Source: an uncultured Chloroflexia bacterium
GTDB lineage: Bacteria > Chloroflexota > Anaerolineae > Anaerolineales > UBA4823
Assembly: GCA_963705155.1 (NCBI GenBank)
Contig: CAVPJC010000001.1
Span: forward strand, 431,088-495,087
DNA length: 64,000 bases
Direction: 5' to 3'
The position numbers and the translations under genes were made by a program. The notes under the pieces were generated by a model that saw only the letters and a list, made by a program, of their open reading frames with translations, ran no database searches and had not been told where the DNA came from. Each line of letters starts with the position of its first letter. Position 1 is the first letter of the stretch. Shown here piece by piece: positions 9,430 through 56,590 of the stretch.

Positions 9430-10086
9430 ATGAGTGATACTTTCCCCCTTTCCGATCTCTTTCAGCCCGCACTCGACCTGCTGGTGGAGAACCGTGAGGA
9501 ATTTAACCGCCTGGATTCGATCAACCAGAACCATGGCGATCATATGTTGGCTATCTTTCAAGCCGCCCGGCGCGCCACAATGGAGAAAACCAGCCTGCCG
9601 GCTGCCATGGCTTATGCTGGCGAACTCCTCCAACAAATGCAGGCCAACGCCTCGGCCCAGGTCTATGCCCGCGGCTTGCAGGCCATTGCCGCACAGTTCC
9701 AGCAGCGCGGCATTGAGATCGACGCTCTGGCGGCATACCTGCGCCGCCACCTGCTGGCGCCTGGTGAGCTGCCGCCTGCGCCACTCGCCGGCGAAGAGCT
9801 CACTTCAGGGGAAATCTTGAAAGCGCTGCTCAACGCCCTCACTACCTGGGAGCAGGCCGAGGTTGCTGCAAAGCAAAACGGCCCGTCTGCGCCTGCCGGC
9901 TTGGACCTGGGCTACCTGCTTGGCATCGGTATGGCCTACATGCAGGCAAAACAGGGCGGCGGCGATAAACTGGACGTGTTGGCCGAAACCATCGTCGCTT
10001 CCAGCCCGCTCGGGCAGGTGCCGCACCGCCTGGAAACGGGCAAGCAGGTGGTGCGCGCCGTCTTGAGCGCCCTGAAAGGCGCCTGA
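9430..10086 (+). CDS. Hypothetical protein (weak DhaL/DAK2-like N-terminal motif)
   Basis: Intact 218-aa ORF. The segment NRLDSINQNHGDHM resembles the DAK2 LD..GDGDHG motif only loosely. Confidence 0.4.
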   Translation: MSDTFPLSDLFQPALDLLVENREEFNRLDSINQNHGDHMLAIFQAARRATMEKTSLPAAMAYAGELLQQMQANASAQVYARGLQAIAAQFQQRGIEIDALAAYLRRHLLAPGELPPAPLAGEELTSGEILKALLNALTTWEQAEVAAKQNGPSAPAGLDLGYLLGIGMAYMQAKQGGGDKLDVLAETIVASSPLGQVPHRLETGKQVVRAVLSALKGA

Positions 10087-24738: not shown

Positions 24739-24787
24739 TTAGACTATCATCTAATTAGATGATAGTCTAATATCTTCGTTTTGTCAA
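24739..24787 (-). promoter_or_regulatory. 32-bp perfect palindrome (operator candidate) overlapping a TTGACA-17-TATCAT promoter
   Basis: TTAGACTATCATCTAATTAGATGATAGTCTAA (24739-24770) is its own reverse complement. On the minus strand, TTGACA (24782-24787) lies 17 nt upstream of TATCAT (24759-24764), which sits inside the palindrome. Confidence 0.55.
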
Positions 24788-25422: not shown

Positions 25423-26760
25423 CTAGCGTACCTTCAGCCATTCCGAAATTATCTGCCGGGCCAATTCAACTGCTTCATCGGGAACTGAGATGCGCTTAAT
25501 GGTGGAACTGAGCGACAGCGTAGCATCCACGATCATCTTTGGCTCCCATACCATTTTCTGAAGATGGATCCAGTTGGTTACACAGCACCCCTGGCAAGAT
25601 CATCACATCTTTGTCCGCCTGCATTCGGGTTGCTACAGACCACCAAACTGCCTGGTCATTGCTCGGGTCAATGTCGCCGTCCACCACCACCACCAGCTTC
25701 AGGTAATGATCTAACCCCAACAGCAAGATCGCCGCTTGCTGCGCTTGCCCTTCCGCGGTTTTGTTGATCTGCAGGATGCAAATGGAAATGCGTGCCCGAA
25801 GCCGGGTAGTAAATGCTACTGTAATAGGGCAGTACTTCTCTCATCTGCTTGTGCACCCACGCCTCTTTCGACGCCCGACCCAGGTTCAGGTGGTCGCTGG
25901 AATTCCCCGGCGCCAAATCAACAAAGATCGGGTCTACCCGCCGGGTGATGGCGGTCACTTCCATCACGTTTTGAGTAGACCAGCTCGAGCGCGTAGCCGG
26001 TATACTCCCCAAACGGGCCTTCTGGCTCACGGGCAATTTGCCCTCAAAAAGCCTTCGATGACGATCTCCGCATAGGCCGGCACATCCACATCTACCGTCT
26101 TCGCCCGACAAATATCAAGTGGCACGTCGGCAAGGCCCCTGCCAATTCATATTCATCCTGGTCCATTCCCATTTTGGCCGCAGCGGCCAACATCACCGCC
26201 GGATGCCCGCCGATCACCACACACACTGGCAAGTCTCGGCCGGCCAGCTCAGATCGCCGGAAGTAATCCCATAAGTGCTGACGGCTGTGAAGGCTGGCTC
26301 CCATGCGTCTCGGACCTTTCACCTGCAAGCGCATGTACGACAGGTTATTGCAGCCAGTGTCTTCGGATACTCGCCGCGGCCATCCCCGCTGTGATATACG
26401 GGCCTGCGTCCTGCTCAAAGTGAACGGGAATGGGAAGCTGGGTCAAATCAGCTTGCTCTCCTAACAGCACCACATCCTGCACCGGCCCGCCATCCCCACG
26501 TTTGGGCGCCACCAGATGGTCCAGGGCATGTCCAAGGCGGTCATAAAAGCCGTGAGGCACTACTCCCACGGCAAAGGACATGATCTCCCGGCTGGCAAAA
26601 AGGATTCGCTGCCATACGGTGGGGTGAATTGCCCATCTGTTCGAAAAAGAACAGCGGGATCTGGCGCTGATCCTCCAATTCCATGGCCATTGCCATCGAT
26701 GTGTAGCCAGCACCACCGATACTAAGACATCAAGAATAGGTGAGGAGAGTCTATTCCACA
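25423..26760 (-). pseudogene. UbiD-family (prFMN-type) decarboxylase, at least 4 frameshifts
   Basis: Pieces 26345..26890, 26092..26418, 25668..26111 and 25496..25726 carry UbiD-like segments (GPVQDVVLLGEQADLTQLPIPVHFEQDAGPYITAGM; VCVVIGGHPAVMLAAAAKM; YYPASGTHFH; LVVVVDGDIDPSNDQAVWW). The C-terminus re-reads as ...AKMIVDATLSLSSTIKRISVPDEAVELARQIISEWLKVR* with stop 25423-25425. The 5' end is approximate. Confidence 0.7.
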
Positions 26761-26765
26761 AGTTT

Positions 26766-27570
26766 TCAGGAATGAGCGTAAGTCTGGCTGCGGTTGAAGT
26801 AGTTAGGGGCTTGTTCTCTCGCTTCTCGTACTGAAGCGATGCCTTCCAGGGCAACTTGAATGGCGTTCTCCCATCCCTGAACCGACCCATAGTTTACATC
26901 TTCGTAGATTACATCGTTTTCCACCAGGTTCCCGGAAACGGCGCACACCATCACGGCATTCAGACCGCGTAGATGGGCGATGATAAAGATCGCTGACGCC
27001 TCCATTTCTAGATTCAAGATCTTGCTGCCGATAGCCTGGCGATGAATTCGGAATTATCGCCATAGAAGGCATCGTCCGAGGCGCTTAAGCCCACGTGTAG
27101 CGGGTAGCCGCCATCCTTTTGCAGCCTGCGTGCGGCCTGGGATCAGCTCGTGTGTTAGGAAATGGTCGGGCACTGCCGGAAAACCCTCACCGGCATAGAA
27201 ACGTGTCGTGCCTTCGTTGCGCATCGCCCCGGTGGCGATCACCAGATCGCCGATGCGCATGCCCGGCTGGAACGCACCGGTGCTGCCCACACGGATGAAA
27301 TGAGTGGCGCCCACGTTCGCCAGCTCCTCGACGGCGATCGCCGCAGATGGGCAGCCAATCCCCGTGGATGTGGCGCTGACCGGGATACCTTTATAAGAAC
27401 CTGTCCAGGTACAAAATTCGCGATTGTAGGCGATTTCCCGGGCTTCATCCAGATATTTGGCAATGCGAAGCACCGATCGGGGTCGCCTAAAAGCAAGACG
27501 TAATTTCCACATCTCCAGGCGCCACTTGCAGGTGATACTGTTTTCTACCCAGTGTTTTTGATGCTTTATC
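26766..27570 (-). pseudogene. Nucleoside phosphorylase, Udp/DeoD (PNP_UDP_1) type, paralogue 1, at least 4 frameshifts
   Basis: Core STGIGCPSAAIAVEELANVGATHFIRVGSTGA...GDLVIATGAMRNEGTTRFY lies in 27054..27572. The C-terminal part NLEMEASAIFIIAHLRGL... lies in 26766..27017. N-terminal YHLQVAPGDV / YVLLLGDPDR segments sit in other frames. Confidence 0.7.
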
Positions 27571-27606
27571 AAGGATTGTGATACAGCTTACCTCTTGCAA
27601 TCCAGT

Positions 27607-28287
27607 TCAATTTAATTCTTGTACGCCACGGATAGCCACCTGGCACAGCAGTTCCAGCGGGCGGTCATCTTTCAGAGCGATGACCAATCCCCCGACCCTT
27701 TTTCTTAGCTTACCGCTCCCACTGCCATCATCGCCGCCAACTCCATCTCAGAGCATAACACACCTGCAGCTACCCAGGTTTGCCAGTTTTCTTGTAATTG
27801 GGCCGACACAGGCTTCCGCTCAGGTTCCCATTCTGCATATAAAAAATCTGTCTGAATGCACCACGCCTACGTGATGCCGGCATCCAGATAGCAGACAGCC
27901 GGCGGCCAGAGCTGCCACAATTTTCTGGATGGGCAGCAGCCGGGTAAGCCAGCGGCAAACAACCCCGTGAGGCGCCCTCCGTCGCGCACCGCCCCCATTA
28001 CAACTACCAGATCTCCGACTGCACCCAGGGCTACATTGCCCGGAGATGCATACCCGGATGAATGTATGTGCACCGAGTACGCTCAGCGTTTCAACCACCG
28101 CCGCCGCCGCCGGCCGCCGATCCCAGAGGAAACCACGAATACCTGCACGCCGCTCAACCAGCCCGATATGCCGCCAGCCCTCCCCACCGTGAGACCTTTT
28201 GCGGCAATTCCAGCATTTCCGCAATCATGCCAGCCCTATTCAGGTCTCCCGGCATAAGCACATAACGGCCTATCTGAGACAGGCTCA
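27607..28287 (-). pseudogene. Nucleoside phosphorylase, PNP_UDP_1 type, paralogue 2, multiple frameshifts
   Basis: ATG at 28287 gives MSLSQIGRYVLMPGDLNRAGMIAEMLE. Later segments (...AAAVVETLSVLGAHTFIRV..., ...GDLVVVMGAVRD..., ...EMELAAMMAVGAV..., ...VAIRGVQELN*) lie in shifting frames. Stop at 27607-27609. Confidence 0.6.
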
Positions 28288-28326
28288 TTTGTTACTTGAA
28301 TTAAATAAAAAGGATCGCCTATCGGA

Positions 28327-29063
28327 TCAAGGCTCATTCAGTTCCCCCTTGGCGCTGGTGATTAGCCAGATTTCCCCGCTTTGCAGGTGCTCCAGCGTAC
28401 TCAGGCAGACCTGCATGAGCATATTATAAGTCACAGAATTACGCCCTGCCATCCTAAGCAAAGCTCCTGCACGCAGGTCCAACAAGCGCGCTGTAACAAA
28501 CAGCGATGAAATAGCCATCTCACTCCCCAACACTTCAGCCTGGCGGTAGGCTTCCACCACCGGCCCGCCGGGAGAGAATTTTAAAGCTCTTGTTGTTGGC
28601 AAATGTGTCGTGAGTACGACCCCGAGCTGACTCTTCAGCGCGTTCTCTCCAGTCACCCGTTCAAGCACCATCGCTATCCTGTGATCGGCCAACGCCGGGT
28701 AAGCGAGCGGTACATATTGCCAGGTTATATATTCTTCTCGCACCGCTGCCCAGGCGACGAATCACATCCGAAAGCTCCACAGAGAGGATCAACATGCGCA
28801 AGCGGATGGATTTCTCCCAGCCAGATTAAGGTCTCCCCCTCCTACCATACGGATTTCTTCCACGGCGATCGCCAAAGGCGGGGAGCCAAACCCGGTGAAA
28901 AAGATACTGAACGAACGCCCGTTGTAAATCCCAGTGATTGTGATGTACTCGCGCCGGGAGGCGACCGTGTGGACGTTATCGAGATACTTTGACAGTTGCT
29001 GAGCCTGCTCACCGCGGCAACTAATACCACGGCTGGGGCAATATCGCCCCGCCGGCAGCTCAT
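28327..29063 (-). pseudogene. Nucleoside phosphorylase, PNP_UDP_1 type, paralogue 3, at least 2 frameshifts
   Basis: ATG at 29063 gives MSCRRGDIAPAVVLV. Then EQAQQLSKYLDNVHTVASRREYITITGIYNGRSFSIFFTGFGSPPLAIAVEEI follows in a second frame. The C-terminal half is track ORF 28327..28743. Confidence 0.6.
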
Positions 29064-29098
29064 ATGCCAGGTAGTTTCACTCGGTGGCGCCGGGCACA

Positions 29099-29953
29099 TT
29101 ACAGGATTTCGGAGAGTGTCAGCCGCCAGGAGTTTGCTAAAAACAGTCCGAAACGTACGTTGCAGGGTCGTGGTCTGTACTCGGGAAGCGGGCCCTGTTG
29201 CAGACCGGCAGCCCGGTTGCCCACCTGGGAAATCCCCAGCACCTCCATATTCATATGCCGGGCTACGATAACATCCGGCACGGATGACATCCCCACCAGG
29301 TCGCCTCCCAGGCGATAAGCCATCATCGTCTCCGCAGGCGTATAGTAGGTTGGGCCGATATTGGCGACGTAAATTCCCTCCCACAGGTGGATATCTTGAT
29401 TAGCCGCAATTCGTTCGGGCAATTGTACGCAGCCGCGGGCTGTAGGCGTCAGTCATATCTGGGAAGCGCGGCCCTATCTCATCATCATTGATCCCGACCA
29501 GGGGGTTGCCCCACAGCAGGTTGATATGGTCCTGGATCAGCATCAGATCTTCAACCCGGTAGAGCGGGTTGACTGAACCGCCTCCATTGCATACCACCAG
29601 GATTGGCACACCCAGTTCGTGGAACACACGCACCGGAAAGGTGACCTCTTGCAGCGTATAGCCTTCGTAGATATGCAGCCTGCCCTGCATGACAAGCACA
29701 GGCTTGCCGTCCAAATTCCCATACACCAGCCTCCCGGCATGATAAGGAGCGGTGGATGTTTTAATCGAGGAATTTCGTGATATGGAATTACTTTTTCATG
29801 CTCAAAGGTGTTTGCGAAGCCGTTCTGACCGGTTCCTAACTCCACAACCGCCTTTGGAATACCCGGCAGACGGTCGCTCAAGAAGGCTGCTGCCTCCCGG
29901 CGTTTCTGGCGTTGGGTTTCAAGGGTTGCTTCACGTTCATTTGACGATAACAT
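29099..29953 (-). pseudogene. Purine nucleoside phosphorylase, PunA/MTAP (trimeric PNP) type, at least 3 frameshifts
   Basis: GGAGCG RBS plus ATG at 29953 (MLSSNERE...). Pieces 29543..29974, 29400..29726 and 29099..29422 contain KPVLVMQGRLHIYEGY, VVCNGGGSVNP and GPTYYTPAETMMAYRLGGDLVGMSSVPDVIVARHMNMEVLGIS. Confidence 0.7.
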
Positions 29954-30029
29954 AGACGCTCCTTGGATCAACAACTCTCTGCTAAAACATCAAAGACAAT
30001 CTTTTTCTGGTGGCGAGTATCGCGGCTCT

Positions 30030-31717
30030 TCATGCTTCCCACGACGGAACCCTCGTACTCACCCAATCCACCATCTTCGGAACGGTAATAGCCTCATGCG
30101 GGGCGCCAATGTCATGAGCGAGCTGCGCAATGGCAGACGGCTTGACATAGGTGGTCATCAGCACGTCGGGCTGGCTGAATACCTGCCGCGGTCGGTCCAT
30201 CCAGGATCACTTCTCCCTGGCGCATAACCACGGTGCGGTCGAAAAACTCCGCCACAAAATCCATATCATGGGTAATTGTCACAACCGTTTTGCCCGAAGC
30301 CAGCAGTGCGCTCACAATCTGACCGAGTTGGCGAACGCCCATTTGATCTTGTGCGGTGGTTGGCTCATCTAACACAATAACTGATGGCCGGATAGCCAGG
30401 ATCGAGGCCAGGCAGAGCAGCTTGCGCTCGGTGATGGTGAGATCGTAGGGATGCAACTCCTGGTATTTGTCGAGATGCACCAGCTCTAAAACTTCTTGCA
30501 CACGGGATTTGATTTCAGTCTCTGAGCATCCCATGTTGCGCGGGCCAAAAGCAACTTCGTCGTAAACCCGGGTGGAGAAGATCTGGTCATCGGGGTTCTG
30601 AAAGACCAACCCCACGGTAGCGGCAAGCTCGGACGGCTCTTTGTCGCCGGTAGGCTCGCCATTTACGAGCATCCGCCCGGAGGCCGGCTTGAGCAAACCG
30701 TTCATATGCTTGACCAGCGTGGTTTTCCCCGAGCCGTTGCGGCCAATGATCCCTACCAAATTTGCCCGGCTCAATCGACAAAGTGACGCCGTTTAAAGCC
30801 TTCACACCCCCCGGGTAAATATAGTGAAGGTCCTCGGCCATTAAGATTGCCATCCAACACCTTCCGGAGGCCAACCTGCGCCTCAGACAATGACAGCGGA
30901 TAAGATCCATTCCAAATCCCACGCTCGCTCAGGCGGAAAGCCAGCTCCGAGTAGCGTGGCGGCAGAATACCGAAGGATTTCCAGGTCTGGCCGGGTGAGC
31001 ACTTCGCCGCGGTGTTCCGACCAATTGGATACAGCCATCTTTAAGAACGACGACTCGCGTCGCCAGGTTTGCGATTGCGTCAATCTTATGCTCAGCGAGA
31101 ATAATGGTGATCCCTTGCTGGTGAAGCCGCCGGATCACATCGAGCACTTCGTCTGTCCCAACCGGGTCTAGCTGCGAGGTTGGCTCATCCATCACCAGGA
31201 TGCTCGGTCGCATGGCAAGTACTGAGGCGATCGCGACACGTTGCTGTTGGCCTCCAGAGAGCTGAAAAGGCGCCCGTTGGGCCAATTCGCGAATATCCGT
31301 GTCGTCAAGCGCCTGTTCAATGCGGGCGATCGAATCCTGGCGCAACAAACCCAGGTTTTCTGGCCCTATGGCCACTTCGTCGTACACGGTGCTCGCCGCG
31401 CCGGTAATCTGGTCAAATGGGTTCTGGAAGACTACGCCCACCTCTGCTACTAAATCCGTCACCTCCAGGTCTGTTGTGCGCCGGCCGTTGACGATTACCT
31501 CGCCGCGCATCTTTCCCTTGAAGAAGTGTGAAATCAGCCCATTCATTAGCAGGCACAGCGTAGATTTCCCGGAGCCATTCTGCCCCAGGATCACCAGCAG
31601 CTCGCCGTCCTGCACATCCAGGTCTATGTGCGAAAGCGCCCAACCTCCTCGGGCCGAGTCCACACGTTCATCTGCTGTTGGGTATCGATAAGAGACATCT
31701 TTGATTTGAATTCCCAT
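30030..31717 (-). pseudogene. ECF-transporter ATPase with two fused ABC domains (EcfA-EcfA'), at least 3 frameshifts
   Basis: First domain is 30929..31717 (Walker A GQNGSGKST, signature LSGGQQQRV, Walker B ILVMDEPTS). Second domain is in 30587..30922 and 30112..30774 (GRNGSGKTT). The C-terminus re-reads as ...AAVFSQPDVLMTTYVKPSAIAQLAHDIG... with stop 30030-30032. Confidence 0.75.
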
Positions 31718-31744
31718 ATAGTTCTCGCTTTCCTTTGTTGCACT

Positions 31745-32531
31745 TCAGCGGACAATCCGGAAATAAATCGACGCGGCCAGGACAATAAAGGCAGCGATCA
31801 TGATGCCGCGCCGCAAGTACCTGTCACGCACAGTGTCAGCCACTTCTCGGATGTAGATCCGCTTGTTGGTGAGATTAAAACCGCGGACTTCCAGCGCCAT
31901 CGCTCGAATTTCCAGAGATGCAAAACTTCCCATGACAACCGGCGACATCAGCGGCAGGTAAGATTTGAGGCGCTTTATCACACTGCCTTTAAGGCTTAAT
32001 CCCCGAGAGCGTTGGGCGTCGAGGATACGTTCAGCAGTCTGCTGGATATAAGGGATCAGTTGAAGGGTGGCTAAAACCAGATAGCCAACTTTCGGGGAAA
32101 CGCCGCGTTGACCCAGTGAAATCATAAGAGTCGCGCGGGTGAATCACCAGCACCATCATGAAGTAGGCGCTGAGGATTGCTGATAGCCGAGAGACAATCA
32201 TTGATGCAAACATAAATCCTTCCTGCCGGATAGCCAGGGGGCCAAGATGGAACAGGATGGTTTTCGAGCCGGGGTAAAAGAGTGAGTCTATCACGAACAT
32301 CATGACAACGATCGGTGTAGTGACGCGCAGAAACATCCAGCTAAATTCGCGCAGTACACCTGCTTTGATCACCAGGATCAAATTAAATGCAAAGATCACC
32401 AGCAGCCATCCAATTTGCCCGACCCCAATTCCCAGCAGCGTGACTGCTAATGTATAGGTAAGTATCGTGATGGGGTTGAGTTTGTGGATGAAAAAGTCGC
32501 CAGCAACGTAAGCTAAAGCGCTTTTACGCAT
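31745..32531 (-). pseudogene. ECF-transporter transmembrane (T) component, one frameshift
   Basis: Pieces 32031..32531 and 31745..32125 join near 32110. The protein is hydrophobic with the EcfT-like C-terminal segment AERILDAQRSRG...ALEVRGF. Confidence 0.7.
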
Positions 32532-32602
32532 GGGTTACTCCAAGTTGTGAGAAAAGGTAAGCGAGGGGAACCAGTGACAATTCCCCTCGCGACGACAGGT
32601 CC

Positions 32603-33257
32603 TCACCGAACGGGCGCCGCCACCGGTTCGGTGATTTCTTCCTTCGTTTCACCCAAGACCGTGAACGGAGCCCGGCTGAACCGGTATAATGTGCGCTTTG
32701 GCAGCGCCTTTATGATGAGAAAGGCAATGATCGCCGAGAGCACTTTATCTGAGCCATCAACCAGCAGGCTGGTGGTCACTACAGATTGCCAGATGTTGGT
32801 ACCCGTTGCCATGAGGAATGCGGTAAATGCACTGGAAGCGCCGGTGCTGATGCCGCCAAACATGAGTACCACAATGGGAGCGCCGATGGGAATATCCACC
32901 AGTTTCCCAACGAAGCCGGATATAGCAGCTTTCCAGATCGTGCGGTAGTATCCCTTTCCGGCCATGAAGCCTGCCACAAGCCCATGCGCGCCATTGACAA
33001 TGGCAAAAGCCAGGGCAGTCGGGCCTTCAATCGTGAAGGAGGCCACCACGTTGGTCAGAATGCCAGTGGCAAATCCTACCCACGGCCCAGCAACGACACC
33101 TGCAATCATCGTGCCGATCACGTTCAGCCAAAAGAGGCAGACGCAGCGACTGGGTAAAAAACTGTCCGACAATGTTGATGCCAACGCACAAGGGGATCAT
33201 CACGAGAGCCGTGGTGTTGAAATCCTCTTTCAGTTGTTGAGAAAACGTCTTCTTCAT
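32603..33257 (-). pseudogene. ECF-transporter substrate-capture (S) component, one frameshift
   Basis: MKKTFSQQLKEDFNTTALVMIPLCVGINIVGQFF (from 33257) joins 32603..33184 near 33140. The small hydrophobic (~215 aa) protein sits directly upstream of EcfT and EcfAA'. Confidence 0.6.
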
Positions 33258-33330
33258 TTTAGGTCTCCAATGAAAAAAATGCACTTGGCAGAGTCGTTAC
33301 CACATTGGCTTCCGGCCAAACGTTGGGGAA

Positions 33331-34600
33331 TTAATCACCTCCTTCCAACCCTTGAATTTGCTTGCCCTCCTGAGCAGATCTCAAAAATAACAACAAACAT
33401 CCAACGATAAGAAGAACGCCAGCCAGCAAGAAATAGATCAAACGGATCGACCCGGTCTGGTCGATCACCACACCTAAGAGAAACGGAGCGACCAAAATCC
33501 CAAGGGCTTTATTTTGCTGGAACAGGCTAAGCCGCAGGCCACACGTGCTCCGGGCTGCCAGCGTGCATGGCATCATGGTCAAAGACGGTCAACCAGTAGC
33601 CCAGCGCTACACCAGTGGCAATCAGACCGGTAGCAGACATCCACGGGACCGGTGCATATCCGAGCAGCGCCAGCCCGATGATTGCAAGGAGGCCCAGCCA
33701 CCCGAGTGTGCGGGTAGGGATCTCTTGGTGTTCACCATGTTTGCCAGCGAGGGCAGCCCCAACGGCCATCGCAAGAGGGGCGATCGCCAGCATGATACCA
33801 ATTTTCCGGCTGTCAAAGCCGAACAGGCTGGATGAATACGATCCAAGGAAAGTGTGGATCGACACCAGGGTGCCCATTACCAGGGCCGCGCCCAGGTAGC
33901 TGAAATGGAACTGGAATCTCTCTCGCACATTCGGTTGAGCCTGGCTTGGGCTTTCCGGTGGGCTCTTGAGATTGGGGATGATGACTGCAGCCAGAGCGAG
34001 GGCGAGTAGCGCAAAGACTGTGCTTGCCAGGAATGGTAGCTCGAGAGCGATGGCTGCCAGCGTTCCTCCCACAACTGGAGCCAGAACCGACCCCAGGCTG
34101 GTGACAAATTCCATCCATCCCAGCACTCGCTGACGGCTGCTCGCAGGGAATTTCTGGTGGATGATGGCGAGATAATGTGGAAACGCGCCAAGCTCGCCGA
34201 GACCCGATAAGCTGCGCCCCACCAGTACCAGAAAATAACCTCCCCAGCCTAGCCACAGAACGGATGCAACCAGCAGGCCACCTAACGCATAAGCCAGCAA
34301 CCCTAGAATGATGACCGACTTCCTGTTCACACGGTCGGAAACCCATCCCACCACAGGCTGGAGGCTCAGGCTTACCAGAGCCGGCAGCGAGGCCATTAAG
34401 CTGAGCTGTGCCACGCTAAGGTGGAACTTCTCCTGCAACCCGGGAAGAGCCGGGAAAATGACGGTCCCCATGAGCGTAGAGTTAAAGCCCAGGAAGAGTA
34501 AGAAGACACTAAGCGGGGTAGACAGGATCGACTTGTTACCGGGTTGGGCAGGTTGACTTCGCGGATGACGAGTTCGACATTTAAGACCTCGATGCTGCAT
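33331..34600 (-). pseudogene. MFS transporter, at least one frameshift
   Basis: Pieces 33527..34726 (real coding begins about MQHRGLK..., ATG 34600) and 33331..33582 join near 33560. Hydrophobic throughout, with a DRVNRK loop motif. Confidence 0.6.
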
Positions 34601-35541
34601 TTTCGTTGAGGTTTTGCGATGCGCTTGATCAGGGCTTGCGCTGCACATCTTCCTAATTTGTAGATCGGGACATGGATCGTCGTAATCCTGGGTGAAAAAC
34701 AAGCACTCATCGGCAGGTCTTCGCAACCAACTACCGAGATATCTTCCGGCACCCGCCAGCCATTTGTTACCAGCTCGCCCACTGCTCCATATACCATCAT
34801 ATCGCTGGAGAAGAATACAGCAGTCGGCGGGTCCGGCAGGCCTATGAGTTGCTTTGCCATTTCAACCCCGCATTCCAGCTTGAAATTGCCGTTCAGGATA
34901 TACTCGTTCGGCAGGGGAATGTGGTGGGCGGAAAGAGTGTCTACAAATCCCCGGAATCTCTCTCGTCCGGTGATTGTTTTCATCAAGCCGGTCACGATCG
35001 CTATTTTGCGGTGGCCAAATTTGATCAGGTGCTCGGCTGCCAGACGAGAAGCAGCCAGGTTATCGACCATGATCGAGTCGATAAACGGGCTGTCCGACTC
35101 GCGCTCGATATAGACGGTGGGGGTTTGGGTTTCGGGCAGGATATCGACCACTTCGGAAACGGAGGCGGCCTCGCTCATAATAATCAGCCCGTCTGCGTGC
35201 CCCTGGTTGACCAGCGAGCGGATAGAATATTCGAGCGACTCCTGCTCATCCGTGTTATACAGAGCGATACTGAGCTGCTTGTGGTTGAGTTCGTTCGAGC
35301 ATCCGCTGGCGATATAGCTGAAATAGGGGTTGGTAATATCGGGGATGATCAGACCAACGATTCCGGAGCGCCCGGTGACCAAACCTCTGGCAATCGGATT
35401 GGGAAGGAAGTGCAGTTCTTTGGCTACAGCTTGCACTCGTTCTAGGGTTTCAGGCCTCAGCGAGTCCGGCTGGTTGAAAGCACGTGACACAGTAGCTTTC
35501 GAAACACCTGCTCGTTTGGCTACATCCAGGATATTGGCCAT
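34536..35541 (-). CDS. LacI-family transcriptional regulator (3' end uncertain)
   Basis: Start at MANILDVAKRAGVSKATVSRAFN (ATG 35541), followed by a periplasmic-binding-like core. The frame as given stays open to 34396, running through the MFS start. A 1-nt slip near 34555 would end it at 34536 (about 335 aa, the usual LacI size). Confidence 0.75.
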
Positions 35542-35667
35542 AATCCCTACGTATATGAAAACGGTTTCTGAAATCGGTTTCATTTATAATATATCAATCA
35601 TTTCTCCATGTCAATAATTAAAAAAATTTAAATACATTACATCAAATAATTACGGGGAAGGTGCAGC

Positions 35668-53847: not shown

Positions 53848-56590
53848 CTATCCGGTATTGCGTAACCCGGCAGCGATACCGTTGATCGTGATGGCGATAA
53901 TCTCGTTGAGCAGATCCGCTTCTGCTGAACCGGCATCGGAGAGGGCTCTTAGCCGGTGGAGCATCTCGACCTGCAAATAGTTCAACGGATCGACATAGGG
54001 GTTGCGCAGCTGCACCGAGCGCTGGATGACGGGTTCGCTCTCCATCAGCTCGCTGTGCCCGCTGACCGCCAGAACAGCCTGGCGTGTGCGCTCGTATTCG
54101 GTCTGTATGGCGGCGAAGATCCGCCCGGCCAGGTCTTGATCTGGAACCAGGGCCGAGTACAGGGCGGCTATCTGCATATCGGCCTTGAGCAGCGACATCT
54201 CGGCGTTGTCGAGCAAGGATTTGAAGAACGGCCAGCGCGTGTACATGCGCTGCAGCCTCTCCAGGCGGCCTGCCGGGGGGTGTGCGTCGAGATAGGCCAG
54301 CAAACCGCTGCCCAGCCCGTACCAGCCCGGCAAATTACAGCGGCTCTGCATCCAGGAGAATACCCACGGTATGGCGCGGATTTTATCGAGATCGCCCGGC
54401 TGCGCCATCCCCGGCAGCCTGGCGCGCCGCCGGGCGCGAACCGATCGAAAGGCGGGAAATCTGCGCCAGCGGGGTGGCTGTTTGCCAGTATTCCAGGAAG
54501 CCCGGTGTTTCGTAGACCAGCCCCCGGTACGCTCGGTAGGCGGCGTCTGCCATGATCGACATGGCGCTGCGCCACTCATCCGGCAGGTGGGCCGCGCCTG
54601 CCGGCTGCGGCGCCGAAGCAAGCAGCACGGCGCTGGCGATCTGCTCCAGATGGCGGTGCGCCAGCTCAGGGTTGGCATAGCGGGACGAGATGATCTCTCC
54701 CTGCTCGGTCAGGCGGAAGTGCCCGTTGACCGTGCCGGACGGCTGGGCGCGGATGGCCCGGTTGGCGGGGCCGCCGCCGCGCGCCACCGTCCCGCCGCGC
54801 CCGTGGAACAGGGTAAAATCCACCCCGTGCTCGCGGCAGGTCAGGTGAATATTCTCTTGCGCCTGGTATAACGCCCAGTTGGCGGTGAGATAACCGCCGT
54901 CTTTGTTGCTGTCGGAATAGCCGATCATCAACATCTGGTGGTTGGCGCAGGTTTGCAGGTGGGCATTGTAGGCGGGCAGATTGGAACAAGGTGTGCAGAA
55001 TATGCGGGGCATCTGCCAGGGCCTGCATGGTTTCGAACAGGGGCACAAGATCCATCCCATCTGCGCAGCCGGTCCAATGCGCCAGCAGGAGCACGCTGAG
55101 CAGGTCGGCGGCGTGCTTGGTCATCGATACCACCACCGGACCCAACAGGGCGCTTCCGTAGACTTTGCGTGCCCGGGAAATGAGCTGGAAGAGCGCCCAG
55201 GTTTCAGCAGTTTCAGGGGTGACGCCAGGGTGCGGGGCCAGGTCGGGCGGATCCCGGGTCAGCAGGTGCTGCAAGAGCGCCAGGCGTTCCTCGCCGGGGG
55301 CGTGCTCGAAAGCCGGGTGGATGCCCAGGCCCCTTAGAATTTCGCCCACGGCAGCGTTTAAGCGTGAAGCGTCTTCGCGAATATCCAACCGGGCAGCGTG
55401 CAAACCAAATATTTGCAGCTGGCGACCGAATTTGAGAATATTACCCCGGTTCAAAGGCTCCGGCATCGCCTGGCGGACCAGCTCCACAGAATGGGTAATC
55501 TCTTCCAGCCGGGCGCGGGCGGGAGCAGGCTGCATGGAGAGCAGGTTGGCGCGCATATCTTCGCGCGAAGCATGCGCCAGGTCTTCTGCCAGCAGGGCCA
55601 GCGCCAGGCGGTAAGGCTCACGGGCATAACGTTTTTCCAGGAAGGCCACGTGCTCTGGCAGGGGGCGGCGGCGCTCGAACCAGGCCTGGAGAGATTTCGG
55701 CGGCGGGACACGCCCGCTGCTGAGGCTCAACTGGCGGGCGAGATCTTGCAGGGAGGCGCGGTGTTTTTCCACGGCGAGACCCCGATGCAATCGCAGGGTT
55801 TCGGCGGTGAATAGAGGTGGTCAAATTGGGGTTGCCATCCCGGTCGCCCCCGATCCAGGAGGCCAGGCGCAGCCAGGGGTGCTCAACAGTCAGCCCGGGG
55901 TAGTGTTTTGCCAGGGCGGCATCCATGTCGGCATAGATGCGCGGCAGCGCTTCCCAGAAGATCGAATCGATGGTGTACAGGCCGGTGCGAACTTCGTCGG
56001 TCACCTCGGGCCGGGCTGTCCGGGTGCGATCCGAAAGCCAGAAGGCGCTGATCTCGATGTGCAAAGCCTGGCGGTATGCCTCGACCTCGACCGGCAGCAA
56101 ATCGGTGCGATTGAGGTTTCTGAGGATCTCGGAGATGCGCTGTGTTTTGGCCAGGATCGTCCGGCGCTTGGTTTCCGTGGGGTGGGCGGTCAATACCAAT
56201 TCGATGGATAACCGCTGGAGCAAGGCTTGCATCTGCGCAGCGCTGACCCCATTTTGTTTCAACTGGGACAACGCCTCTTCGATGCTGTCGTGGCCGGGGG
56301 CGTTTTCACGGTTTTGCTGGCGCAAGGTCTGGACGCGCGAATCCTCTTCCGCCAGGTTGACCAGATCAAAATACAGGCTGAAAGCAGAAGCCACGGCGCG
56401 TGCGGCGCCATCCGGACAGGCCGGCGACTTCCTGCGCCAATTCCTGTGCATCACCATCCGGTGTGCTGCGGCGCTGTTTGGCCAGCCCGCGAATTTTCTC
56501 TACCAGCAGAAAGATCTGAGGGTCTTCACGCTCGGTAATCACCTGCCCGAGCAGATCGCCCAGCAAATGAATTTTTTCGGTCAGGTCCAT
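53848..56590 (-). pseudogene. ppc: Phosphoenolpyruvate carboxylase, at least 4 frameshifts
   Basis: Pieces 56366..56590, 55618..56457, 54666..55790, 54383..55060 and 53848..54678 are collinear with PEPC. Landmarks are VLTAHPTE, MIGYSDSNKDGG, FHGRGGTVARGGGP and the invariant C-terminus NGIAAGLRNTG*. Confidence 0.9.

Follow-up and report, generated by a model that had tools for sequence, protein, structure and literature searches.

The locus described here lies in a 64,000-nucleotide (nt) stretch of contig CAVPJC010000001.1 from an uncultured Chloroflexia bacterium (assembly GCA_963705155.1, genome of 5.27 Mb); this whole stretch is called the window throughout. Between 35583 and 25423 on its minus strand, Pfam models were matched in the order LacI, MFS, energy-coupling factor (ECF) S component, CbiQ, two ABC_tran, four PNP_UDP_1 and finally UbiD together with UbiD_C, the matches falling on fragments of open reading frames (ORFs) and not on whole genes. 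The locus is a real, rare and conserved operon, most likely a nucleoside salvage or catabolic operon of new make-up. For comparison we used three reference loci: L025, a metagenome contig; L162, a sibling contig; and L163/L164, short-read contigs from other samples. An earlier note on this DNA had named the same families in the same minus-strand order, and Pfam bears this out, though on fragments only. Its count of one PunA-type and three Udp-like phosphorylases followed by a UbiD enzyme was confirmed with NCBIfam models on the intact L025 orthologues. It was right on content and order and left unmentioned both the frame breaks and the degenerate state of one phosphorylase paralogue. The ECF ATPases, taken there for a fused AA' protein, are two separate genes overlapping by 20 nt in L025, and the start of A' is visible in the window. 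As described, the UbiD gene directly follows the last phosphorylase gene; in L025 its ATG overlaps the Udp3 stop (TAATG).

35586..35614, minus strand: sigma-70-like promoter, TTGACA-17-TATTAT, 11/12, upstream of LacI (consensus match only)
34558..35541, minus strand: LacI-family regulator without frame break (Pfam LacI, Peripla_BP_1, Peripla_BP_3)
33331..34535, minus strand: MFS transporter, 2 frameshifts at about 34496 and 33547 (Pfam MFS_1; guided alignment)
32606..33257, minus strand: ECF S component, 1 frameshift near 33170 (PF12822, 30.2 bits on a fragment)
32561..32590, minus strand: hairpin with 13-bp stem and T-rich tail between S and T (pattern match only)
31745..32531, minus strand: ECF T component (CbiQ), 1 frameshift near 32129 (PF02361 on both fragments)
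30852..31717, minus strand: ECF ATPase A, 2 frameshifts at 31006 and 30978 (ABC_tran)
30033..30853, minus strand: ECF ATPase A', a separate gene, 2 frameshifts at 30760 and 30186 (ABC_tran)
29102..29953, minus strand: PunA-type purine nucleoside phosphorylase, 4 frameshifts (PNP_UDP_1 on fragments)
28327..29099, minus strand: Udp1, degenerate Udp-like paralogue, 4 frameshifts (PNP_UDP_1; L025-guided read-through)
27588..28339, minus strand: Udp2, Udp-like paralogue, 9 frameshifts, gene ends approximate (L025-guided read-through)
26804..27582, minus strand: Udp3, canonical Udp-like phosphorylase of the S. pyogenes uridine phosphorylase type, 5 frameshifts (PNP_UDP_1, 75 bits)
25423..26802, minus strand: UbiD-family decarboxylase of the phosphorylase-linked clade, 8-9 frameshifts (PF01977 and PF20696 on fragments)

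The promoter-like sequence is part of the region alignable with L025 and L162. The LacI gene aligns in a single frame with the L025 LacI fragments, and its open frame continues to 34396, beyond the stop of the orthologue. The hairpin between S and T may set the transcript ratio of S to T and the ATPases. Downstream of UbiD, a perfect palindrome with 14-bp arms (24739-24770) is found in a 1.1-kb non-coding stretch between promoter-like matches. No riboswitch was detected with Rfam in the window locus or in L025, L015 or L017.

Conservation of the cassette and states of the phosphorylases

The closest UbiD homologue, P0001 (83% identity on the fragment), sits on L025, which carries the same genes as the window locus in the same order. 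Window positions 35633-25431 align with L025 at 72-75% nt identity and the flanks do not align; the common block is exactly LacI to UbiD, ending at the UbiD stop. A search with Udp1, which has only 14 relatives among 5.8 billion proteins, yielded two further loci, L162 and L163/L164. L162 matches window 36085-25327 at 96.5% identity, the FolB flank included. On L163/L164 the genes for A', PunA, Udp1-3 and UbiD are all intact and closely spaced in the same order, followed by an M20 peptidase, at identities to L025 of 67% (A'), 74% (PunA), 36% (Udp1), 54% (Udp2), 75% (Udp3) and 58% (UbiD). Orthologous loci in which UbiD and the phosphorylases lie apart would have spoken against the earlier note; they stand together in window/L162, L025 and L163/L164, and the four phosphorylases plus UbiD are a block conserved in these three lineages. 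A DNA search of 40 relatives found no orthologous locus, and a related-locus search with the UbiD homologue P0002 returned none in genome contigs and two weak loci in metagenome contigs. A homologue of Udp3 (62% identical) in genome G023 has an NMT1/ABC context outside any such cassette.

L025 itself carries one more frame break than its gene calls suggest. Its UbiD (9882-9920) reads MDRPSPDLRSF from the ATG that overlaps the Udp3 stop, followed by a frame shift at a T5/A4 run; breaks are also present in its LacI (2), MFS (1) and T (1-2) genes. Distant Udp1-like proteins on L165/L166 are paired with a second PNP_UDP_1 gene, beside Oxidored_molyb and a phosphopentomutase-like metalloenzyme.

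The L025 PunA scores above the cut-offs of NF006054 (313.6 bits, cut-off 218) and TIGR01697 (282 bits, cut-off 197), and the window genome has a second PunA. Udp1, Udp2 and Udp3 match the uridine phosphorylase model TIGR01718 best, with 110, 216 and 225 bits, all below its cut-off of 280.3. The closest solved structure is S. pyogenes uridine phosphorylase 3QPB (161 bits for Udp3, 95 bits for Udp1). The phosphate/ribose site motifs of this family, as seen in the E. coli uridine phosphorylase and DeoD structures, are GDPxR, R-E, RVG-T/S-G and EME, and their states were compared across 13 aligned array members. All four motifs are retained in Udp3 and in every copy of the relatives. In Udp1, GDPxR, RVG-T and the second Glu of EME are gone while R-E is kept, and this degenerate state is common to the window, L025 and L163. 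Udp2 keeps the motifs of its own site, with R-E changed to G-G in the window and L025. The read-through copies of the window show the same motif states as L025. In NP-I enzymes such as E. coli uridine phosphorylase and DeoD, the Arg of R-E reaches into the phosphate site of the neighbouring subunit; since this Arg serves the neighbour, a Udp1-containing heteromer is a reasonable idea as judged from these motifs.

Frame breaks in the locus

Frameshifts were counted by frameshift-aware alignment of the intact L025 proteins to the window. All genes of the locus except LacI are broken, with the counts listed above and about 39 breaks in total, in the presence of 0 in-frame stops. Identity of the read-through products to L025 ranges from 58 to 89% (S and A 89%, PunA 82%, UbiD 76%). 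When 5044 sliding windows of the genome are ranked by their cover with ORFs of at least 200 amino acids, the 9-kb stretch of the locus comes 11th from the bottom, and the remaining window contains long open frames of up to 1018 amino acids. Breaks are far denser at 25.4-29.9 kb (about 6.9 per kb) than at 30-34.6 kb (about 1.3 per kb), so their distribution does not track gene or operon borders. About 90% of the indels are 1 nt long, with no deletion bias, and the locus is 13 nt longer than its L025 counterpart. Homopolymer slippage was considered and rejected: the longest run averages 2.82 at breaks and 2.80 at random positions, so simple slippage or homopolymer error offers no explanation.

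Several lines point to noise in the assembly. Not a single nonsense codon is present in 2238 codons, although real neutral indels would be expected to come with 4-24. In a relative-rate test with outgroups, amino-acid change specific to the window was not in excess apart from Udp2 and, to a slight degree, UbiD, which have the highest numbers of breaks. The UbiD read-through retains 118 of 122 clade-invariant residues. Comparison with the sibling contig points the same way. In the eight guided genes L162 has 37 breaks and the window 36, of which 28 are missing from L162; the MFS break at 33547, both breaks in A and all five in Udp3 are not found there, and its S gene is intact. At 24 of the 39 window sites L162 shows a frame-restoring state within a few bases. 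The two contigs differ by 109 gap positions and 267 substitutions. Among public runs only one, from sediment, contained 5% of the words, and the short contigs obtained from it belong to relatives at 90-97% identity.

A further case is provided by the genome's only ppc gene (phosphoenolpyruvate carboxylase; window 53851-56584, minus strand), which has four +1 breaks, near 56422, 55818, 54980 and 54427, and no stop, indicating that even a housekeeping gene is affected by such consensus indel errors in this assembly. Of the roughly 39 breaks in the locus, no fewer than three quarters, and probably nearly all, are consensus indel errors of the assembly, and we consider it likely that the operon is intact in the cell.

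Two observations leave room for a real but partial decay. Eight breaks coincide in type and position between window and L162, in A', PunA (2), Udp1, Udp2 (2) and UbiD (2); this exceeds the 2.9 expected by chance (P about 0.01), and these breaks could be real mutations. Substitutions between the two contigs show only weak purifying selection (omega about 0.67); synonymous changes number 88, compared with 67 +/- 7 expected if neutral, a difference confounded by noise in both assemblies. The alternative would be a genuine, ongoing loss of the operon in the window/L162 lineage, a few real frameshifts predating the strain split with assembly noise on top, and the rank of the locus among the lowest in the genome for long-ORF cover, together with further low-GC patches that are likewise fragmented, is in keeping with it. 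We regard such a loss as unlikely, given the lack of nonsense codons, the prevalence of 1-nt indels free of deletion bias, the symmetric amino-acid rates, the retained invariant UbiD residues and the intact S gene of L162. Context-specific consensus errors of one sequencing platform could also explain the coinciding breaks, as the assemblies behind both contigs are noisy.

Another five patches, each about 10 kb long and with a GC content of 0.48-0.53, compared with about 0.58, contain only short ORF fragments and resemble the locus (C14:27000-39000, C12:90000-104000, C7:71000-82000, C3:19000-33000 and C22:235000-246000); C20:71-76 kb is the rRNA operon. As a caution for users of this genome, dense frame breaks in its accessory operons mostly reflect consensus noise, and gene decay should be concluded from them only with support from the reads.

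Transporter, decarboxylase and proposed function

With PF12822, PF02361 and two ABC_tran genes in the order S-T-A-A' within one operon, the ECF module is of the dedicated (group I) type. Its ATPases match ECF ATPase models best, below the cut-offs (232 vs 315 and 229 vs 330 bits). The sole family matched by the S component of L025 is the CD3073 family NF045596, at 99.4 bits and below the cut-off of 180. Of 401 genomes sampled in the phylum, 68 have S homologues with 30-41% identity. All of the 20 closest S loci are S-T-A-A' modules like that of the window; one or two IU-type nucleoside hydrolases stand beside S in 12 of them and a PfkB kinase in 13, counts that are not independent since many of these genomes are kin. 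Three relatives have the order S-A-A'-T followed by 2-4 Udp-like genes and an MFS gene, so that phosphorylases next to this S family occur in two separate arrangements. Two unrelated families of enzymes that cleave nucleosides, the IU-type hydrolases and the NP-I phosphorylases, are thus linked to this S family. A firm place of S in a vitamin-specific family, which would have contradicted the earlier note, was not what we found: its nearest family is CD3073, below cut-off, putatively of the QrtT type with nucleoside-like cargo (queuosine precursors) and no classical vitamin family, and its closest homologues lie beside IU-type hydrolases and a ribokinase-like gene.

Within the phylum, an operon of PfkB kinase, one or two IU-type hydrolases and ECF S-T-A-A' is recurrent (L143, L144, L145, L146, L151 and others). 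It resembles a scavenging unit for nucleosides and ribose built on an ECF importer, and no description of it was found in the literature. A second S homologue of the genome (G000 C13:400456-401028, minus strand, 30% identity) has five stop codons inside the match.

Membership of the decarboxylase in the UbiD family follows from the window fragments, which pass PF01977 and PF20696; the homologue P0002 scores 315 bits with TIGR00148 (cut-off 245). The closest solved structures are HmfF (PDB 6H6V, 272 bits) and the indole-3-carboxylate decarboxylase AnInD. The genome holds two distant UbiD paralogues. A UbiX gene, which the earlier note had suggested looking for, is present at C17:196-657 (NF004685, 216.8 bits, cut-off 188), unlinked to the locus; the second flavoprotein match in the genome is CoaBC. 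Phosphorylases were found in 1 of 86 loci with UbiD homologues, namely L025. In a maximum-likelihood tree the UbiD proteins of the window, L025, L031 and L163 form one clade (97/96), which is sister to an Amidohydro_2-linked clade, the two being joined at 100/99. The genes of these nearest other UbiD proteins (58-63% identical) follow two Amidohydro_2 genes, usually with a molybdenum (Mo)-hydroxylase trio and a Bmp-type ABC transporter. In each Amidohydro_2 pair the H-x-H and Asp metal ligands are missing from the first protein and retained in the second, an asymmetry that matches DHLI alpha/beta of Cupriavidus sp. LA-1. There, the UbiD enzyme XCDC, encoded adjacent to DHLI alpha/beta, turns xanthine-8-carboxylate into xanthine (PMC12391406). 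Because the sister clade has the XCDC gene context, decarboxylation of a purine-like base by the UbiD of the window appears plausible, by analogy. The neighbourhood of XCDC (DHLI alpha/beta pair, lumazine dehydrogenase) is not present at the window locus, where phosphorylases stand instead.

In four Chloroflexota clusters (L026, L028, L032, L033) the degenerate and active Amidohydro_2 pair, UbiD, the Mo-hydroxylase trio and the Bmp ABC transporter are found together, often with MtmB-like and corrinoid proteins; these clusters are likely to serve pterin/lumazine degradation. L042 (Herbaspirillum), considered as a possible link to the cluster of Cupriavidus, was rejected, as it carries luciferase-like monooxygenases there instead.

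Taking these lines together, we lean somewhat towards a single LacI-repressed operon for nucleoside uptake, cleavage and decarboxylation of a purine-like base, most likely intact in the organism. A LacI-type repressor would control the whole operon. The dedicated S-T-A-A' importer, whose S component is putatively related to queuosine-precursor carriers, would bring nucleosides in, and the MFS protein may move a related substrate or product. The four NP-I paralogues are predicted to split the glycosidic bond: PunA would act on 6-oxopurine nucleosides, Udp3 would be a canonical uridine-phosphorylase-like enzyme, Udp2 would have a site of its own, and Udp1, its phosphate site lost, would probably be a non-catalytic partner subunit. 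UbiD, using prenylated flavin mononucleotide presumably supplied by the unlinked UbiX, would decarboxylate a purine-like heteroaromatic base, either ahead of cleavage or following it, and so yield a purine fit for salvage, for instance xanthine. The uptake, cleavage and decarboxylation of an unusual nucleoside proposed in the earlier note fits all the context gathered; the substrate and the order of steps we infer.

A more specific version is doubtful as a whole, namely a pathway for a natural nucleoside with a ring-carboxylate purine-like base of the xanthine-8-carboxylate or 7-carboxy-7-deazapurine type, combining ECF import, a heteromeric phosphorylase with a dead Udp1 and a new UbiD subfamily sister to XCDC. 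Several points count against the favoured operon reading itself. We know of no natural nucleoside with a xanthine-8-carboxylate-type base. Udp2 of L163 keeps the Arg of R-E, which weakens the idea of an obligate Udp1/Udp2 heteromer. L031 falls inside the phosphorylase-linked UbiD clade yet has no phosphorylase upstream, and the sister clade was likened to Cupriavidus LA1_0150 by gene context alone.

The cassette might alternatively salvage queuosine or other 7-deazapurine nucleosides, with QrtT-like import, phosphorylases freeing the base and UbiD acting on compounds of the 7-carboxy-7-deazaguanine type. The CD3073 family is the best match of S, QrtT and QueT are the only ECF carriers known for nucleoside-like cargo, namely queuosine precursors, and the queuosine hydrolase QueK is an IU-type enzyme (PMC11130926). 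The UbiD enzymes listed for comparison in PMC12391406 include the family member TubF of Streptomyces tubercidicus, which produces tubercidin. We nevertheless hold this to be improbable: S lies far below the family cut-off (99 vs 180 bits), genes of queuosine salvage (TGT, QueL) are in none of the loci, the ribokinase-like gene and the paired hydrolases of relatives suggest that nucleosides or ribose are used in bulk, and the sister clade of the UbiD has a pterin/lumazine-to-xanthine context. Least probable of all is that UbiD is a mere neighbour, its substrate belonging to an unrelated aromatic-acid pathway beside a plain nucleoside scavenging operon, as the three relatives with ECF genes and Udp arrays without UbiD and the 85 other UbiD-homologue loci, and likewise L031, without phosphorylase would suggest, but UbiD and the phosphorylases stay adjacent in three lineages, even where protein identity falls to 36-58%, their genes overlapping or closely spaced, the phosphorylase-linked UbiDs are one clade, and the block common to window and L025 stops exactly at the UbiD stop.

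If a nucleoside operon with a purine-directed UbiD is indeed present, the ECF transporters, whose known cargo is almost entirely vitamins and queuosine precursors, would gain a nucleoside-specific branch; a second context would be added for the purine-carboxylate UbiD decarboxylases discovered recently; and a well-studied nucleoside phosphorylase family would contain a conserved dead-subunit paralogue. The intact L163 or L025 genes make the nucleoside-ECF, UbiD and dead-subunit readings directly testable.

Comparison with known systems

The earlier note did not recognise the combination, and no description of four phosphorylases and a UbiD enzyme behind an ECF importer was found in the literature searched; searches on CD3073, on ECF with nucleoside phosphorylase and on UbiD with nucleoside phosphorylase returned nothing relevant. 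The E. coli CytR regulon groups a LacI-family repressor with phosphorylases and a nucleoside importer. The window locus shares with the CytR/deo-udp regulons and the Bmp/Nup transporters the grouping of a LacI-family repressor, purine- and uridine-type phosphorylases and a dedicated importer, and differs from them in its ECF-type importer, its four paralogues including a degenerate one, its decarboxylase and the lack of deoB/deoC in the locus. Compared with 3QPB, Udp1 is missing the phosphate-binding residues.

As in the QrtT/QueT and QueK systems of C. difficile (PMC11130926), a PF12822-type ECF S component is linked to a nucleoside-cleaving enzyme. The window locus, however, links S to four phosphorylases and UbiD, and its relatives to one or two hydrolases and a ribokinase-like gene; queuosine-salvage genes are not present, and S stays below the family cut-off. 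With cluster I of Cupriavidus LA-1 the cassette has in common a UbiD of the heteroaromatic branch, and its sister clade shares the Amidohydro_2 pair, UbiD and Mo-hydroxylase trio; in the window, four phosphorylases and an ECF importer replace the Amidohydro_2 pair and the Mo enzyme. The nearest solved structure, HmfF, is a 2,5-furandicarboxylate decarboxylase, but the Cupriavidus XCDC is inactive on furandicarboxylate (PMC12391406).

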